A stretch of DNA of 63,896 nt, filler included, from Chrysochromulina tobinii (GCA_001275005.1; 9 parts of 9 records of this genome joined end to end with filler, not necessarily neighbours in it), one strand, 5' to 3'. Counted from the whole stretch's first letter, positions 11,280-47,670 are shown. Made by a program: numbers and translations. Notes: generated from the letters alone by a model not told the origin.

Positions 11280-11511
11280 GCTGCCTCTGATGGCCTCTGA
11301 GTGCCTCTTGGCCTCTGAGTGCCTCTGAGTGCCTCTGAGTGCCTCTGAGTGCCTCTTGGCCTCTGAGTGCCTCTGAGTGCCTCTGAGTGCCTCTTGGCCT
11401 CTGAGTGCCTCTGAGTGCCTCTGAGTGCCTCTGAGTGCCTCTGAGTGCCTCTGAGTGCCTCTGAGTGCCTCTGAGTGCCACTGAGCTTGTCACTGAGCTC
11501 GTTACTACCAG
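11280..11511 (+). repeat. Predicted intron made of (GCCTCTGAGT)n decamers
   Basis: ~190 nt of tandem decamers with GCCTCTTG variants. Probable GC donor near 11280; acceptor TACCAG at 11511. Confidence 0.8.
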
Positions 11512-38817: not shown

Positions 38818-39888
38818 TGAGAATGGCGACCAAAAGGAGGACGGCTACTGAATGTCCCGACGCGCCATGGCCTGCACGGAGGGCCGCTCGTACGCAGACC
38901 CTGCCGTGCGCAGGCCGTGGATGCGCCGTGATGAGCCCTTGCATGCCGTGGCGCGTCGTGATGAGCACTGCCGTATGCAGGCCGTGGATGCGTCGGCCGC
39001 CTCGCCAACCACACCGTCAGTTACAGCACACTGTCAGTTACAGTCTCCTCGATACGCCGGGAGGCTTCTGAGCGGCCGTATCCGCGACCGTGCACCGTCA
39101 GTCATCCGAGTCAAAAGCGCGGCGGCATCGCCACAGGCCCTTTAGATGAACAGATTGAACACGTGAAAGCCGTGCCTTCACCGGAACCGGGTCGGGTGAC
39201 GGGTCTTGAACGCTTAACGTCACCGTGAGGTCGTCGTCTCGTGTGCCGTCTGCGGTGCCTGTGTTTGCGCCTTTCGGGGGTAGACGGTAGTGCAGTACAC
39301 GACAGTCGCCTTTCACAGTATCGCCAGAGTTTGACGCCACCGTGGTCGTATACGGTGCGAGATTTGATTTTGAACCACGCGGCACGTGGGACATCGCAAG
39401 ATAATTAGCCACGCGTGTGTGGCAACGCTTCGCGGTGCTAGTTTACCTACCGCGTGACCGGAGCGCGTTACTCGTTTCGCGCGGTGTCCGGCTGTCCGCG
39501 CCGGTCCGCATTTCGAAAAAGGGCGCGCCCCCCACGAGGTGGCTACATGACGCGAAGAGACTCCCAGGGAGCGTCTAGCCAGATGGAGATGCTCATCTTT
39601 CCGTGCGATGGTCGATGCACCATGCAAAACATCGCCAATCTCCCTGAGCCCATCTCTGCGCAATCTCCACCGGCCGTTGAGCCCATCTCTGCGCGATCTC
39701 CATCTCCGCGCGATCTCCATCTCTGCGCGCACCGAATGCGGCACCGCACGGGGCCATACGCGCGTTTGCCCGGTCGCGTCGCCCACGAGACGCGTTGCAG
39801 ATCCGCCTCCGCTACCTCGGTCGCGCATCAGCAAAGCATGCATGCCAGTCAGACATGGCAGCGAGGCGTCTGACCCATATCCCTTTAC

Positions 39889-42802
39889 TCACCCGACCGC
39901 ACCGCCGGCAAGCGAAGCGACCGTGCATGCGCCTGCGCTGGTGTCGAAGCTGAGCCCGTGGAAGGTCGGCACGCAGCCGGCTGAGATCTCAAAGTGCGGC
40001 TGCAGCTTCTCCCAGAGCTTCTTTTTTGGCGGGAGCACGTCGAGTGGCTCGCCGCTGACGCCCGCAAAGGCAATGCGCTCGCCCACCGCCGCACCGGCCG
40101 GCGGGTCGATGATCTCGATCTTGCTACATGGCTCGTCGCGGGCCTTGCCGCAGAGCACCATCGCCTGCGACTCTACGTTCTTGAGCTTCGAAGGCTTCAG
40201 GTTGCACAGCACGATGACCTTGCGGTTCCGCATCTGCTCAATGGGCACGTGCTTGACGAGCCCGGACACGACTGTCCGCGGCGCGCCCTCGCCCAGGTCG
40301 ATCTGCTCCACGTACAAGCCATCCGCCTCAGGGTGGCGCTCCACAGCCACGATCAGGCCGACGCGGATATCCAAGATGGCCACGCTCGTGCCGTCCACGA
40401 TCCCAACGCCGCCACCTGCTGCAGCCTCCTCCGCAGCCTTCTCGGCGGCCGCGGCGGCGGCTTGCTTCTTGGCCGAGGCTGCCTTTTTCTTCTTCTCCTC
40501 CTCCGCTGCAGCCGCCTGCGCAGCGAGCGCACTCAGTGGCACTCAGTGGCACTCAGTGGCACTCAGTAGCACTCAGTGGCACTCAGTGGCACTCAGTGGC
40601 ATCAGTGACACTCGCCTGCGCCGCGAGCGCCTCCGCGGTGTCGACCTTGGCGTACATGATGTCGCCGACGCTCGTGAGCGTGCCGGGCTGCAGGTTGGTC
40701 AGGGTCGAGCGCAGCTGGCAGATGGGCAGCGGAGGGGTGCCGAGCATCGTGAAGACACGGCCGACGCCGTCGGTTAGGAAGGGCGCCAGGAAGTGGCACG
40801 CGACGTAGATGGCCTCGAGGGTGGTCCGCAGGATCACGAGCCGCTTGTGCGGGTCGTCCTTGATCTTCCAGGGCTCCTTGTCGGTCAGGAACTTGTTGAC
40901 CGTACTGAGCGCGCTCGTGGCGAGGCTGGCGGCAACGTCAATCTGGTAATTCTTGTACGCGGCCTCGGTGGCGGTGCGCAGCTTGTCGACGTCGAGGTCG
41001 ATCTCGCACGGCAGCTGGGAGGGGATCTTGCCATCCGTGTAGCTCTTGCACAGGTTGAGCGAGCGGTTGACGAGGTTGCCAAACGTGTCCGCGAGCTCGG
41101 CGTTGTGACGCAGCGCGAGCGCGGTCTCGTTGAAGGTGACGTCGCCGCCAAAGGTGCACTCGCGCATCAGGAAGAATCGGAACGAGTCCACAGGAAAGCG
41201 AGCGAGCACGTCGTACGGATCGACCACGTTGCCGTACGACTTGGACATCTTGCGCCCATCGGGGCCGTGGACGAAGCCGTGCGCGAGCACCGTCTTGGGC
41301 AGCGGCACCCCCGCGCACATGAGCAGCGCGGGCCAGATCACGCAGTGGAACCAGATGATGTCCTTGCCGATCAGGTGGCAGGAGGCCGGCCAAAAGTGCG
41401 CGAGTGGCGACGATCTTGAAGGATCAGGTGCGGTGGGGTCGTACCCGATGGCCGTGATGTAATTCGAGAGCGCGTCGAACCACACGTACATGACGTGGCC
41501 GGGGATGTCGCCCGGGACCGAGATGCCCCAATCGAAGGTGGTGCGCGAGACGGAGAGGTCCTTCAACGGCACCGCGAGCCTCTCGAGCACCTCGTTGCGC
41601 CGCGCCTCGGGCACGATGAAGTCCGCATGGGTCTGGATGTGCTCGATGAGCTTCTGCTGGTACTCGGACAGCTTGAAGAAGTAGGAGGGCTCCTCCATCT
41701 TCTTGAGCGGCACGCCGCTGCTCGGGTCCTTGTAGTCGTTGGCGAGCGCGTCGCTGTCGGTGACGAAGGTCTCCTCGCGCACGTTGTACCATCCCACGTA
41801 CATGCCCAGGTACACGCCGCCCTGCTGCTCGCACTTGGCCCACAGCTTGCGCGCGATCGTCTTGTGCGCGTCCGAGGTCGTGCGCACGTACCCGTCGTAC
41901 CGGCAGTTGAGCGCGTGGTCGAGCTCCTGGAACTGCGCCACGTGCTTGTTGCACAGCTCGATGGGCTGAAGCCCCTGGGCCGCCGCCGTGTCCGCAATCT
42001 TCTGGCCGTGCTCATCCGCGCCCGTGAGGAAGAAGACCTCGCGCCCATACGCGCGATGGTACCGCGCGATCACATCGGCCGCGATCGCCTCGTACGCGTG
42101 ACCCATGTGCGGCGGCCCATTGGCGTAGTTGATCGCCGTCGAGATGAAGTAGGAGCCGCATTCGGGTTTGGGCGGGAGCGGCGGGAGCGTCGCACTCTCT
42201 GCTGGCAGCGCCCCCCCCGCCGCTGACGGGGCGGCCGGTCGCGGCGGGGGCGGGGTCGCGAGTGAGGTAGCCGACGCGCTCAGGTCGCTCGCCTCAAACC
42301 AGAGGTCACGAAGGCGTGCGACGTCTGCGTCGTCCTTCGCGAGCTCGATCAGCGGATCGGCGGTCACTTTGACCACGCTCAGGTCGCCGCGGATGCTGCC
42401 GGGCAGAGCTCGCGCCGGATCATCATCGCCGACGAGGGTGCGCACCGTGCTGAGGGCGTTCGGCCCTTTCCACAGCGTCACGATCACGGGCCCAGGGGCA
42501 AGCACGGAGACGAGCTCAACAAGCTCCGATTTCGGCACGGAGCCATAGTGGTTCTTGGAGAGGTCCGCACCCGGCTTAAGCATACGCATGGCGCACAGCG
42601 TGAGGCCACGGCGCTCAAAGCGCAGGCATATCTCCGAAACGAGCGAGCCTTTGATTACCGCGGGCCGAAGCAGCACGAAGGCGATTGAGTCGCTGCAGCT
42701 GCCGCCGGTGGAGGCAAGAGCACGCGCCGGACGAGCCTGAAGCGGGTTGAGCTCCGCGAGCTTTGCGAAGGCGTTCGTCGGGCCGACTTGTGGACCGTCC
42801 AT
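39889..42802 (-). CDS. MARS: Methionyl-tRNA synthetase with N-terminal NDK-like domain and C-terminal EMAPII/Trbp-like tRNA-binding domain, join(40616..42802,39889..40515)
   Basis: HMGH (HIGH-like), TGADEHGQKI, YVWFDALSNY, GKDIIWFH, KMSKS. A 100-nt GC-AG intron joins in frame to LDIRVGLIV...HPEADGLY...RTVVSGL...NLKP...SQAM. Confidence 0.95.
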
Positions 42803-43006
42803 CTGAGGTGCCTTGACTCTCACGACAGCTTCGTCGCCGAGAGAGAGCGAGACGAGGACCACGGGGGCGCAAATTGTGTCGCGTGAATGGAGCTGTTCAC
42901 AGTCAGTGATTCAGCCTCAGTTGAACACAACCGTATCAAAGGACGGCTCCGCTCGTTTGATGCAAAGCACATATCCGAAAGCGCGCGCAGGCTAAGCCTA
43001 AGACCC

Positions 43007-44974
43007 CTAAGCGTTTGACAGACGAGACGCGCATCGGACCGAGCTGTACGCACTGCCGGTGCCGCCGACTCGACCGGCGCCCACCCACGCGGACCCACCC
43101 CGCACCATCGGCGCGCTGTGAGTCCCGCCCGCCATCGGCCGCGCCGCCCGCGCCGGGAAGTAGGCGGCGCGAGTGGCGCTGCCGACGCCAGCGCTGCCGA
43201 CGCCCGCGCTCGCCGTCGTGCTGGCTGAGGCGGCAAAGGCGGAGGCGGCAAAGGCGGAGGTGGCGGCCGTGCCATGAACCGTGGGAGCGGCCGTGGTGGC
43301 GGCTGCCTCGGCCGGGGCCGTGGTGGCCGCGCCACTTAGGGCCGTGGTGGCGGTGGCGGCGATCGCGGCCGAGCTGGCGTCGTGTTGGGCGGCGGCGTGG
43401 CCTCCAAGAGCTGGCGCGCCCAACACGACGCCCTTGGCCGTGCAGTAGCATTCATGCAGCGCGAGCCCGATGGCATGGCCCATCTGCGTGTACGAGGCGG
43501 GCTGGTACGCCTCGCCGCGCACATTGCCCTGCGCCGCACAGAACATAGAGACCTCGAGCGTGTAGCAGTGCACGCCCGGGAGCATCTCGGAGAGGGCCCG
43601 GCGGCCCGTGCCCGCCTTGGACTCGTCGCGGTCGAACTTGCAGCCCGCGGACGAGAAGTCTTTGGCTTGGTTCGCTAGGCATCGAGGAAAGGCGGTGACG
43701 GAGTCCATTTCGCGAAGGTCCTCGGGCAAGTTGGCGAAGATGAAGCCATTCATGCACGTCGAGTGCGCGTGCATGTCGAGGATCATCTCGAGCGCGGCCG
43801 CGGGTGTGCCGCCGCGCGCGGCCGCGTGGGCCGCGTGCGCCGTGTACTGCCGAGCGAGCTCTCGCACCGCGTGGATGGTGGGCGCCATGCCGGGCATCGA
43901 CGCGTGCCAGAGCCGGTTGAGGTCAAGACCGCACGAGTTGCATCGGTAATTGCCGAGGAAGACGCCGTCAGGGTTGAGCATCGGGACCACCTTGAGGATC
44001 ACGTGCTCGCGGAGCTCACGCGCGCGAGCGTGCTCCGACGTCAGGAAGAGGATCAGCCCGTGCATCATGAACGAGGCAGGCGACTCACCAGGGTGCACAC
44101 GCGCGCTCACTAAGACGACGCGGCGCGGCGCGACAGGCCCGGTGCCCGGCGGCGCGCCCTCGGGCGCAGGTGGAGACCCCACCGCGTGGCCCGCACGGAT
44201 GGCCGCATCGAGCGCCAGGTTGGCGGGCGACGAGATCGTGAGCAGGTCGAGCCGTCGCTCTTGGATGGAGCGGCACAGCAGCTCGCGATGCAGGCAAGGG
44301 AGGGCCTTGTGCTCGAGCGCGAGCAAGAAGCGCTGCAGGTACGAGTACGTGTACGGGAAGCAGTAGGCAAAGTAGTACGTCTCGTCCGCGCGCTCGAAGC
44401 AAAACGGGAACGAGAGGACGTAGTCCTTGTTGTGGCGCGGCGAGCGGTAGTAGAAGACGGACTGCGGAGGCATGCGCTCCCAGTACGGGCGCGCCGACGT
44501 GCACACGACGGGCGCCATGCCGTCGCGGAAGAGCGACTTGGTCTTCGAGTACCCGAGGATGTTGAAGACCACCTTCTGGCCCGCGCGCGCCCCCTTGACG
44601 CTGAAGTAGAACCACACGCGGTGGCGTGAGTTGAGCGTGTCGGGCCGAATCTGCAGGTCGTACTCGCATGGCTGCAACGAGACGAGCTTCGCCGAGGCGA
44701 GATTGGCACTTTCGAAGCTCGTGCCATCGAACTCGAGCTCGGGTGGCCCAGCGGCAGAGGCCGACGAGGACGCTGCAGCCGCAGCCGCCACCTGCTGAGG
44801 CTGCGTTTCTGGCTTCGGCGGTGGAGGTGCTAGCTGCGGCGGCGCGTCCTGCTTTGCGGACGCCACGAATGCGGGGCCTTGCTGGTCCGGATCAGAGCTG
44901 CGCAAAAAGGATTTTGCGCGCCGTCCGGCGGTCGCTTGCAAGGAGGCCCTATTCCAGCCAAGGGCGAGTTCCAT
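43007..44974 (-). CDS. Cytosolic carboxypeptidase (M14D, CCP6/AGBL4-like tubulin deglutamylase)
   Basis: FESANL, WFYF, FPYTY, ARVHPGE, PMLNPDGVFLGNYR, DLNR, DMHAHS, YTLEVS. Confidence 0.92.
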   Translation of the reverse strand: MELALGWNRASLQATAGRRAKSFLRSSDPDQQGPAFVASAKQDAPPQLAPPPPKPETQPQQVAAAAAASSSASAAGPPELEFDGTSFESANLASAKLVSLQPCEYDLQIRPDTLNSRHRVWFYFSVKGARAGQKVVFNILGYSKTKSLFRDGMAPVVCTSARPYWERMPPQSVFYYRSPRHNKDYVLSFPFCFERADETYYFAYCFPYTYSYLQRFLLALEHKALPCLHRELLCRSIQERRLDLLTISSPANLALDAAIRAGHAVGSPPAPEGAPPGTGPVAPRRVVLVSARVHPGESPASFMMHGLILFLTSEHARARELREHVILKVVPMLNPDGVFLGNYRCNSCGLDLNRLWHASMPGMAPTIHAVRELARQYTAHAAHAAARGGTPAAALEMILDMHAHSTCMNGFIFANLPEDLREMDSVTAFPRCLANQAKDFSSAGCKFDRDESKAGTGRRALSEMLPGVHCYTLEVSMFCAAQGNVRGEAYQPASYTQMGHAIGLALHECYCTAKGVVLGAPALGGHAAAQHDASSAAIAATATTALSGAATTAPAEAAATTAAPTVHGTAATSAFAASAFAASASTTASAGVGSAGVGSATRAAYFPARAARPMAGGTHSAPMVRGGSAWVGAGRVGGTGSAYSSVRCASRLSNA

Positions 44975-45215
44975 GCCCCCAGGTTCTTCGCGAACGCGAA
45001 AATAGCGTTTCGAGTCCACTCGCAAAAAGTGTGCAAGACGGCGCTTTAGTCTTCTTCGACTTTAAACACGAAAATACCTGATGCAATTCCACGTCCATCG
45101 TGGTACATGTAATAGCCCCCTTCCGTATCGCGCACGCGTCGGCCTATTTAATAAGCTCAGGCCGAAGTACAAAGAGGGGGTAAACTAAGCCCGTCAGCAT
45201 CGAGCAGTCGGCACC

Positions 45216-46157
45216 TCAGAAATAGTCATCGTCGGCCCCGTACTCGCGAAAGCTATCGCCTGCCTGGTGCTCCGAGGCCGCTGCCCCACCCCCAGCGGCC
45301 GCGGGCGAGGCGGCCGACGCAGGAGGCGACGCGGCACCAGGCGAGCCCTTACTACCAAAGGGCCAGAAGCCGGCTTTGGACTTCGACTTGTCGCCAGTGG
45401 CCTTGCGATTGGCGGGGCCCCGCGGGCGCTGCAGCAAGGCTGTGGGCACCGCGTCGGGCACGTCCCCCATCGAGCTAGTGCGGCCACTCGTGACAGGCGG
45501 CGGGCCAGCATGTCCGCCGGTGGGCGAGCGACCATCCACGGCCTCGACGCCCACCTCGGCGCCCGCGCCCACCTCGGCGCCCGCGCCCGCGCTAAAAGAG
45601 GGGTGCCGAGTGACCGCCCCCTCCTGCAGCTCAGTCAGCATCACGAGCTCCTCGTGGGACAGACCAATTGGCGCATTGCTGTGAAGAGGGGTGTGAAGAC
45701 CAATTGGCCCTCGCTCATGAGCAGAGGCCCCAAGCTCCGTTGCCGGCGGCGGCAGTGCTGACCCCACCCCTGTGAATTCACACCTCGGCAGTGCTGACCC
45801 CACCCGAGCGCCGCCGCTGCCGCCGCCGCCCCCCACGGCGCCCGCCGTGGGGGTGCTGCCGAACGCAAGCGCCGCCAGCAGCGTCTCTTCGTCGATGTAA
45901 TCTTCCCGAGGCTGCGCTGGGGTCGCCGGGGTCGGTGTGAAGAGGGCTGCCGTCGCCAACGCCGCAGCCGCGGCCTCCGGCACCGGGGTCGACGCCGGCT
46001 GCGGCGTGCGCGGTTTACGCTGCTCTGCATGCAACTTGCGCAGCGACGCGGCGAGACCCTCCTGCCGCTTGTTGTCGCGCTCTGCCTTCTCGATCGCGGC
46101 CAGAAAGTTGGCCAACTCGACAAGGAGTTGTCGCGCCGTTCCGGCATCCACAGGTCC

Positions 46158-46203
<46 letters not shown>

Positions 46204-47670
46204 GTCACAGCACCATCGCCAAACGCTTTGAGCAGCTTGCGAAGCTCCGTCTCGCTGCGCTGCACGGCCGCCTCGACAGCGATCACGAGCTCCTTGGCCT
46301 CACGCACAGACGCATGGAGCACCGCACACACGCGCCGGCAAAAGTACGCGGCCACTTCGGGCGCAGCAGCCTGGTAGTTCTCCCACTCCGAGGGCGGTGG
46401 CTCCGCAGCCCACGCGCCAAACTCATTCGTCTCCTTGGCGAGCTGGGCGAGCGCGCCCGGCTCTCGCGAGCCATTGGCGACGCCCTCGCCATCGCTCTCA
46501 GCATGGGCGTCGCCGTCGGCCTCGACGGCCACCACCGCCACCCCGGTGGCCGCATTCTTGGCACGCCTCTGAGCTTCCTCGGCGGCGCGGATGACCTCGA
46601 GCTCGAGCTCGGTCATCTCCGTGCGCAGCCTGGCCGCCTCCTTGTACACCTCGCCGAGGTCGAGCGCCGCCGCCTCGGGCAGCCGCTTCAGCTCCATCCG
46701 CAGCGCGGCCGCATTCGCGCCCAGCTCAGCGCACTGCTCGGCCACGTAGTGCATCAAGGTGACCTCACCGCCCTTGGTGCTCTTGACGGTCATGAGCACC
46801 GACAAGACCTCGAGTCCGAAGGCGCTCGCCTCGCCGCGCGCGGTACCCTCGTTCATCGCGTTACCCACCGCGAGGACGACCCCGAGTGCCCTCTGCATCG
46901 CCGACGAGGTGCGCGCCTGCGACGCGCCCGCGACGGCATACTCGAGCTGCCGCTGCAGCGTGCGCGCCAACGGCCCGATGGCCTTCGCCGTCATGTAAGC
47001 ACTCAGCCGGGGGCCGACGCGCGGCAGCGCCATCATCCGATGCAGAAACTCGTCCGCCTCGGCGAGCAATGGGCGCTCGGGCCGCGGCACCTCGGGCGAG
47101 ATCAGGGCGAGATGAGCGCTGATCTGCTCCGACTCCTCCTCGGTCGGGAGGCAGCTGATGAGCGCAGGCAGGTCCTCGGCCGAGCCCGACGCGTTGAGCA
47201 CGCTCGCATCGAGCGTGACGATGGCCAGGTGCATGCGCACGGGCTCGCGCGCGCCGCGGAAGCGGGAGAGGGTGATCTGGATGTGCTGGGAGCGTCTCAT
47301 CCCGAGGATCGAGGGCACGCTCTCCTGCTTGAGAGGCGTGCTGCCCGGCGCCCCTGGGGTACCCTTTGCTTGCGGCGTACGCTGCGCGACGCTGGCGAGG
47401 CTGTGCAGCCGTTGCTGATTCTTGAGCTGCTCGACGCCGAAGAGTGTCAGCATCGTCTCCTGATCCACCGCGTACGCCGCCGCCCATCGGCTCGCGCCAT
47501 CCCACACCGTCGACGCTGCCCCGCTGTCTTGAGGCGCCGATGGGTTCTTGAGGCGCCGCCAGTGCAGCGGCCGCAACTTGGCGGTGGTGACGCGTTTGGG
47601 CTTCGGTGCGCCGGCGAGTCCGGGCAACGGCGGCGGCGGCGGCGGTGCTCCGGGCGGACGCGGTGCGCCT
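45216..47670 (-). CDS. Formin (end of FH1 + FH2 domain), 5'-partial
   Basis: Poly-Pro at the contig edge; KLRPLHWRRL, RRSQHIQITLSRF, LPTEEE, VLAVGNAMNEGT.RG.A.AF.L..L. Confidence 0.9.

Follow-up and report, generated by a model that had tools for sequence, protein, structure and literature searches.

In Chrysochromulina tobinii, methionyl-tRNA synthetase (MetRS) opens with a nucleoside diphosphate kinase (NDK)-fold domain that has lost the catalytic histidine, and, in sequences of probably haptophyte origin, a homologous non-catalytic domain sits on a second synthetase, histidyl-tRNA synthetase (HisRS), the MetRS-linked and HisRS-linked copies forming sister groups. Because of this sister domain, and because a GST-like domain occupies the same N-terminal slot of MetRS in other lineages, we propose that the pseudo-NDK would serve as a pairing tag that docks on its HisRS-linked counterpart and builds a MetRS–HisRS complex in prymnesiophytes, a reading to which we assign about equal chances of being right or wrong. 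No published description of an NDK–MetRS or NDK–HisRS fusion was found, a mention in the table of a genome paper being possible, and both the fusion and its HisRS-linked sister are apparently undescribed.

The gene lies on the minus strand of the window (the whole stretch of DNA analysed, 63,896 nt), where the frame from 42910 to 40583 is open over 775 codons and holds the NDK domain and the MetRS core in the same stop-free stretch (Table 1). The two coding exons give a protein of 729 + 208 = 937 aa, a MetRS–EMAPII enzyme opened by the NDK-fold domain. An MDGP start stands at or near the start Met of exon 1 in many homologues, and the RNA contigs end at 42833-42874, by the exon 1 start. Exon 1 encodes Met at residues 1, 72 and 74 and not again until residue 233, which lies within HMGH; as none falls between the NDK domain and the MetRS core, the synthetase has no start of its own. 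The N-terminus showed no obvious targeting peptide on inspection of the sequence and starts with the conserved motif, which leads us to infer that the NDK–MetRS is likely the cytosolic MetRS.

Table 1. Features of the NDK–MetRS gene in the window (positions counted from the first letter of the whole stretch)
Feature	Position	Strand	Content	Evidence
CDS exon 1 (729 codons)	40616..42802	-	start Met, N-terminal helix, pseudo-NDK, linker, MetRS catalytic and anticodon-binding domains	ORF translation
N-terminal helix, residues 9-18	42749..42778	-	conserved, AFAKLA-type, then disordered spacer	alignment; model
Pseudo-NDK domain, residues 38-174	42281..42691	-		PF00334, Foldseek, pLDDT, residue table
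Flexible linker	42155..42280	-	Pro/Ala-rich	pLDDT under 50 at residues 177-201
MetRS core	40616..42154	-		TIGR00398 metG, PF09334 (tRNA-synt_1g), PF19303 (Anticodon_3), motifs
Intron, 100 nt	40516..40615	-	phase-0, GC-AG; ends GCGAGT...GCAG	RNA joint skipping 100 nt in 6/8 runs
CDS exon 2 (208 aa + stop)	39889..40515	-	Lys/Ala-rich linker, then EMAPII-like tRNA-binding domain	RNA contigs linking it to exon 1
EMAPII-like tRNA-binding domain	about 40078-40368	-		PF01588 (tRNA_bind), E 6.5e-29

Whether NDK and MetRS are in fact separate mRNAs, a question raised by the sequence-only reading of this DNA, is answered in the negative by the transcripts. In three of the eight runs compared (X1, X2 and X3), one spliced RNA contig each, of 3350, 3336 and 3262 nt, carries the whole gene, from NDK through MetRS to the EMAPII exon. 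These contigs reach from ~39420-39470 to 42833-42864 and skip 100 nt once; the 14 RNA runs, alike in year and library type, may come from a single campaign. In addition, a contig of run X4 (41526-42859) bridges NDK and MetRS, the contigs of run X6 are broken at 42284/42352, and among the pieces listed for runs X6, X14, X15 and X16 there is no contig bridging the two. An assembly or gene-model artefact that joined neighbouring NDK and MetRS genes might be suspected, as the public model of this very locus, KOO34416.1, is over-fused. The continuous ORF, the spliced RNA contigs, the lack of an internal start codon and the recurrence of the architecture in 23 independent clusters refute such an artefact, and we leave it next to no probability.

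KOO34416.1 is a named C. tobinii protein whose pieces match the window at 94-100%. Its 1617 aa (window 39889-47453, minus strand) unite a formin (47453-46224), a cytosolic carboxypeptidase (44914-43517) and the NDK–MetRS in one model, and because the RNA contigs do not join the formin or the carboxypeptidase to NDK–MetRS, it is probably a mis-fused annotation that swallowed these two upstream genes. The GC-AG intron is filled (40529-40613) with a 10-bp tandem repeat (GCACTCAGTG-like), which recurs elsewhere in the window, as at 11320-11477 (21 matches vs 0.4 expected). Many unrelated contigs match the repeat at high depth, which suggests a genome-wide minisatellite or an intron-associated element.

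The synthetase part is a bona fide MetRS, which scores 420 bits against TIGR00398 metG (cut-off 336) and has intact HMGH (42098-42109, residue 232) and KMSKS (41237-41251, residue 518) motifs. The N-terminal helix is modelled with low to moderate pLDDT and residues 19-36 with pLDDT under 50; the helix is absent in Emiliania, in protein P0255 and in the HisRS-type domains. The linker between NDK and MetRS measures 30-115 aa in homologues. In another protein, P0162, Glu/GlnRS-type domains (PF00749, PF03950) precede a MetRS core, possibly as a bifunctional synthetase or a chimeric contig.

The sequence-only reading had placed a complete NDK-fold domain inside the MetRS ORF at 42281-42691, and this placement holds: taken alone, the segment matches Pfam PF00334 at E 2.7e-21 over profile positions 3-132 of 135, and its 76.3 bits (cut-off 27) settle the further question of whether an NDK profile hidden Markov model (HMM) would recognize it. 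The domain also matches 105 PDB sequences at E<=1e-3, and the 60 of them listed are all NDKs. In Foldseek, a model of the domain superposes on NDK structures (E about 5e-12, TM(target) about 0.8, rmsd mostly 2.1-2.6 A), and modelling from a 30-sequence alignment gives the domain a pLDDT of mostly 87-95. With the profile covering the whole domain and the ferredoxin-like NDK fold both present, it belongs to the NDK fold family. Its median identity to canonical NDK matches is about 31%. The ESM Atlas yielded nothing more informative than generic clusters of NDK or HisRS, with scores of 0.86-0.88.

The active site, on the other hand, is dismantled. We tabulated residues for 31 MetRS-type, 9 HisRS-type and 74 canonical NDK domains, numbered as in human NME1 and anchored on a canonical match, with the active-site and dimer-face residue sets taken from excerpts of PMC7554756 and PMC4322457; the mis-cut P0024, the partial sequences P0252 and P0279, the near-duplicate P0004 and the chimera P0256 were left out of this table and of the NDK trees. 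As the sequence-only reading had it, the NxxHGSD segment is replaced and the conserved Lys and Thr are changed: NIIHGSD aligns with PLIELAK, so that His118 becomes Glu (codon 42344-42346), with Lys12 to Arg and Thr94 to Asp. Phe60, Asn115, Ser120 and Glu129 are changed as well, and Tyr52, Arg88 and Arg105 are kept. Across the family, position 118 is Glu or Asp in 40/40 domains, His being absent from all 31 of the MetRS type; Phe60 and Thr94 are lost in 40/40, and Arg88 is retained in 10/31 MetRS-type domains (12/40 overall). The canonical residue is found at active-site positions with a frequency of 0.24 in the MetRS type and 0.54 in the HisRS type, vs 0.99 in the 74 canonical NDKs, and against the NCBIfam NDK profile the window domain scores 74.8 bits, below the cut-off of 155. 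The catalytic His of NxxHGSD is thus gone, and the nucleotide set K12, Y52, F60, R88, T94, R105 and N115 listed in the excerpt of PMC7554756 is no longer complete. For a domain of this sequence, kinase activity would be excluded by the established mechanism. Sequence, transcripts and the lack of His118 in 31/31 MetRS-type domains support the claim that MetRS carries a catalytically dead NDK.

Two roles had been suggested for the dead domain, oligomerisation and nucleotide sensing. Sensing is disfavoured because none of the 31 MetRS-type domains retains Thr94, Asn115 or Phe60, the residue that stacks on the base, and Arg88 persists in so few, and nucleotide binding would be unlikely; oligomerisation gains, indirectly, from the sister dead NDK on HisRS and from the GST-like slot elsewhere. 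A broader form of the sensing idea, in which the domain binds a ligand (nucleotide, CoA or polyphosphate) or acts as a nucleic-acid-binding module regulating the synthetase, could draw on the retention of Lys/Arg12 (29/31), Tyr52 (28/31) and Arg105 (29/31) in the MetRS type and on NME1 structures with CoA, known from PDB titles. Against it stand, besides the losses just named, an acidic residue in the phosphate site, a head region of variable length and a Kpn loop that can be deleted, and we give it a small chance.

The fusion recurs well beyond the window. A single-sequence search returned 7 matches among 2084 candidates, all with NDK and MetRS, and a profile search returned 23 among 7995, with PF00334 and PF09334 both present in 23/23 (longer than 318 aa). 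Clusters of NDK–MetRS contain named members from C. tobinii, Prymnesium parvum (KAL1519426.1), Scyphosphaera apsteinii and Emiliania huxleyi; judged by these sequences, NDK–MetRS is a lineage trait over several haptophyte orders. Among the 120 best relatives of the MetRS core (of 356), 14 match the pseudo-NDK profile, and several more of the closest relatives are N-truncated, three of their clusters holding full-length members that bear the domain. Automatic database labels note an NDK-like domain on some fusion members. The P. parvum fusion protein (P0095) is labelled 'Nucleoside diphosphate kinase, mitochondrial', a naming error, and the NCBI model of Emiliania huxleyi starts at the HMGH Met, without the NDK domain (P0209 vs P0213). 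In pattern-based scans, which are sensitive to close relatives only, the MetRS-type profile found no viral relative, the HisRS-type profile found 13 viral loci at 25-49% identity, and a prokaryotic scan found 23 loci at only 23-38%; by these scans the pseudo-NDK domains have no close prokaryotic or viral relative.

One could take the domain for what is left of an accidental fusion and now serves as no more than a folded spacer, and it does degenerate in places: in Emiliania and P0104 the Kpn loop is gone and alpha1/beta2 kept, and P0109 is possibly a further case. We regard a relic as very unlikely, given that MetRS-type domains retain a median identity of 51% among themselves, like the 53% among canonical NDKs, that the domain has been retained over several orders and that a second synthetase also carries it.

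The N-terminal slot that the pseudo-NDK occupies is taken by other sequences in related enzymes. Among 98 MetRS relatives lacking the NDK domain, 32 have a GST-like N-terminus, 62 a short N-terminus and 4 something else; the GST-like HMM, seeded on four Pfam-GST-labelled proteins, matches 0/15 of the NDK-bearing N-termini. In a FastTree phylogeny of 113 MetRS cores, which is fast and unrooted, the 15 NDK-bearing proteins and P0109 form one group (support 99) whose nearest sister is P0107 (91), a protein with a GST-like N-terminal remnant (14.8 bits, 0/500 shuffles as high). Because this sister and 32/98 relatives have a GST-like N-terminus, the simplest history that the sequences suggest is one in which the pseudo-NDK replaced a GST-like domain on MetRS. 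P0109, inside the NDK–MetRS clade, has a 93-aa, unrelated-looking N-terminus; its reading as a degenerate NDK is suggestive by eye and not significant (12/500 shuffles as high). The NDK domain may be dispensable in P0109, or extremely degenerate, or the gene start may be wrong.

The second synthetase came to light among the 150 best representatives (of 1.84 billion). In seven of these, the NDK domain lacks the His, and the motif PPSGTRDF, with which HisRS starts, comes 70-97 residues after it. At the lost His they read NL[LV]E[CS]S or NLVDVS. P0277 is a complete NDK–HisRS of 647 aa (TIGR00442 hisS, 313 vs 287 bits), P0261 matches PF13393 at 1.4e-16, and P0265 and P0282 are fragments of HisRS-type NDK without a visible partner. 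In the domain tree, a single branch with an SH-aLRT support of 98 sets the MetRS type (31) and the HisRS type (7 plus the 2 unlinked fragments) apart from 45 canonical NDKs, and on its pseudo-NDK side the MetRS type has a support of 98 and the HisRS type 88; these trees are quick searches over 136 columns, the canonical NDKs too were picked with that profile, and long-branch attraction may act. The support stays at 98 after removal of long branches (23 vs 25 rows), in a tree additionally without P0101, P0104 and P0213. Median identity between the MetRS and HisRS types is 40%, and to canonical NDKs it is 33% and 38%, respectively.

We infer that the HisRS-linked proteins are haptophyte; their records share a Gly/Ala/Arg/Pro-rich composition with NDK–MetRS. 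P0256 is a chimera that shares its first 30 residues, without a difference, with MetRS-type P0255 and is HisRS-type in the remainder, being either an assembly artefact or a product of gene conversion between paralogues. The sister relation, the similar composition, the P0256 chimera and the lack of a close prokaryotic or viral relative are indirect signs that both fusions would be present in one genome. No HisRS core was found in the 63,896-nt window or in loci L001-L009. Among the other proteins met, P0253, P0258, P0292 and P0354 consist of 5-7 tandem NDK domains, two of them with an N-terminal thioredoxin, and the His motifs look intact in the three tandem proteins inspected.

The two types differ at the dimer face, where residue 22 is Ser or Ala in 30/31 MetRS-type domains vs Phe in 9/9 of the HisRS type, residue 26 is Lys or Gln in 25/31 (Leu in the window's own domain) vs Glu or Asp in 9/9, and residue 38 is Met in 27/31 vs Cys in 8/9. 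The type-specific residues at 22, 26 and 38 are thus opposite in size or charge between the paralogues. The capping Glu29 is present in 22/31 MetRS-type and 9/9 HisRS-type domains, being invariant only in the latter. Within each type the face is about as conserved (0.69 in the MetRS type, 0.71 in the HisRS type) as in canonical NDKs (0.67), and only slightly more than the other columns (0.63 and 0.68, respectively). The alpha1/beta2 face persists in Emiliania and P0104, which lack the Kpn loop, a part of the trimer face and of the active site. The least that the pseudo-NDK retains as a function seems to be its dimer face.

How such a face would be used can be read in several ways. Each pseudo-NDK might homo-oligomerise its own synthetase, as a dimer or hexamer, raising tRNA avidity, with the paralogue-specific residues blocking cross-pairing. 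We find this rather unlikely, because HisRS, already a homodimer, would gain little from such a tag; moreover, Glu29 is relaxed in the MetRS type only, and a HisRS-type homodimer would, by reasoning, bring Phe22 and Glu/Asp26 from both sides near the two-fold axis. The features that speak for homo-oligomers are the retention of Arg27, Gly32, Pro101, Gly102, Gly106 and Asp107 in 29-31 of the 31 MetRS-type domains, the construction of all functional NDK oligomers from the beta2 homodimer (PMC7554756, excerpt) and the dimerisation of Mycoplasma penetrans MetRS via appended enzyme domains (PMC13215547, excerpt).

Alternatively, the dead domains would form mixed hexamers with active cellular NDK, bringing ATP regeneration to the synthetases. 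In eukaryotes, the hexamers of NDK are reported to be heterohexamers (PMC7554756, excerpt), most Kpn-loop residues are kept, and in other organisms an active NDK is fused to EF-1beta, another translation factor. The divergence of the dimer face, with the canonical residue at 0.51 in the MetRS type and 0.42 in the HisRS type vs 0.67, the presence of the invariant Arg18 in only 9/31 MetRS-type domains and the deletion of the Kpn loop in Emiliania and P0104 make mixed hexamers improbable. The EF-1beta fusions, in which an NDK with an intact His motif is fused to an elongation factor 1-beta GEF domain in eukaryotes (recognized by Pfam in P0322 and on inspection in P0306 and P0330), connect NDK with translation in a separate way.

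For the evenly weighted proposal of MetRS–HisRS pairing, the following sequence of events is proposed. An NDK gene would have lost catalysis once and then been duplicated onto two synthetases, the dead NDK displacing the ancestral GST-like domain of MetRS. The alpha1/beta2 dimer face would then have turned asymmetric, so that the MetRS type pairs with the HisRS type, the touching residues being assigned by reasoning. Because HisRS is a homodimer, the product would be a His2-Met2 particle, or a larger one via the Kpn-loop face, sharing the EMAPII tRNA-binding domain of MetRS. Glu118 may take over from the phospho-His in positioning Lys/Arg12, Tyr52 and Arg105, and the retention of these three residues would then be explained. 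In its widest form, which we advance tentatively and at somewhat under even likelihood, the proposal is that prymnesiophyte haptophytes independently built an NDK-scaffold multisynthetase complex of NDK-type heterodimers or heterohexamers of MetRS, HisRS and perhaps other translation proteins, with the GST-like tag replaced and Glu118 as a phospho-histidine mimic.

Dead NDK domains are also carried by NME8 and XRP2. The haptophyte domain is fused to a synthetase, unlike NME6, NME8 and XRP2, which are stand-alone, ciliary or mitochondrial, and its best matches are group I-like NDKs. With group I NDKs (NME1-4 type, PF00334) it shares the fold, the secondary structure, the Kpn-loop RGD motif and the alpha1/beta2 dimer face; it differs from them in the loss of His118, Phe60, Thr94, Asn115, Ser120 and Glu129, in the synthetase fusion and in having no C-terminal hexamer tail. 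The pair NME6 and RCC1L (PMC8597243, excerpt) offers a parallel, in that a phosphotransfer-inactive NME interacts with a protein and is linked to translation, an interaction role that the domain described here would share. M. penetrans MetRS likewise has an N-terminal enzyme-derived domain, which drives its oligomerisation (PMC13215547, excerpt); that appended aminotransferase is active and of unrelated fold, the organism is bacterial, and no second synthetase is known to share the domain. In yeast, GST-like N-domains assemble the MetRS–Arc1p–GluRS complex (PMC4394549, excerpt). As in this and other eukaryotic complexes covered there, several translation proteins have in common an enzyme-derived fold, found on the MetRS N-terminus, and there is a tRNA-binding domain of the EMAPII type, the pairing role of the NDK being suggested by that analogy. 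The haptophyte fold is NDK and not GST, EMAPII is fused to MetRS itself, unlike in the yeast complex, and the excerpted text of PMC4394549 does not list HisRS, the presumed partner, for the complexes of yeast, Toxoplasma or Trypanosoma. No scaffold protein with a pseudo-NDK domain was found. At most, the pseudo-NDK would act like a multisynthetase assembly domain without the GST-like fold.

It has long been asked why eukaryotic synthetases form complexes, and the well-described examples considered here rest largely on GST-like tags or on p43/Arc1p-like scaffolds. The analysis corrects the kinase name of the P. parvum protein and the over-fused C. tobinii model, and the pseudo-NDK pair is a small, soluble two-domain system open to direct testing. 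If the pairing proposal is true, a globally abundant lineage of algae would have adopted the fold of an unrelated dead enzyme and built complexes convergently, and the pairing, and not the fold, would be what is selected.
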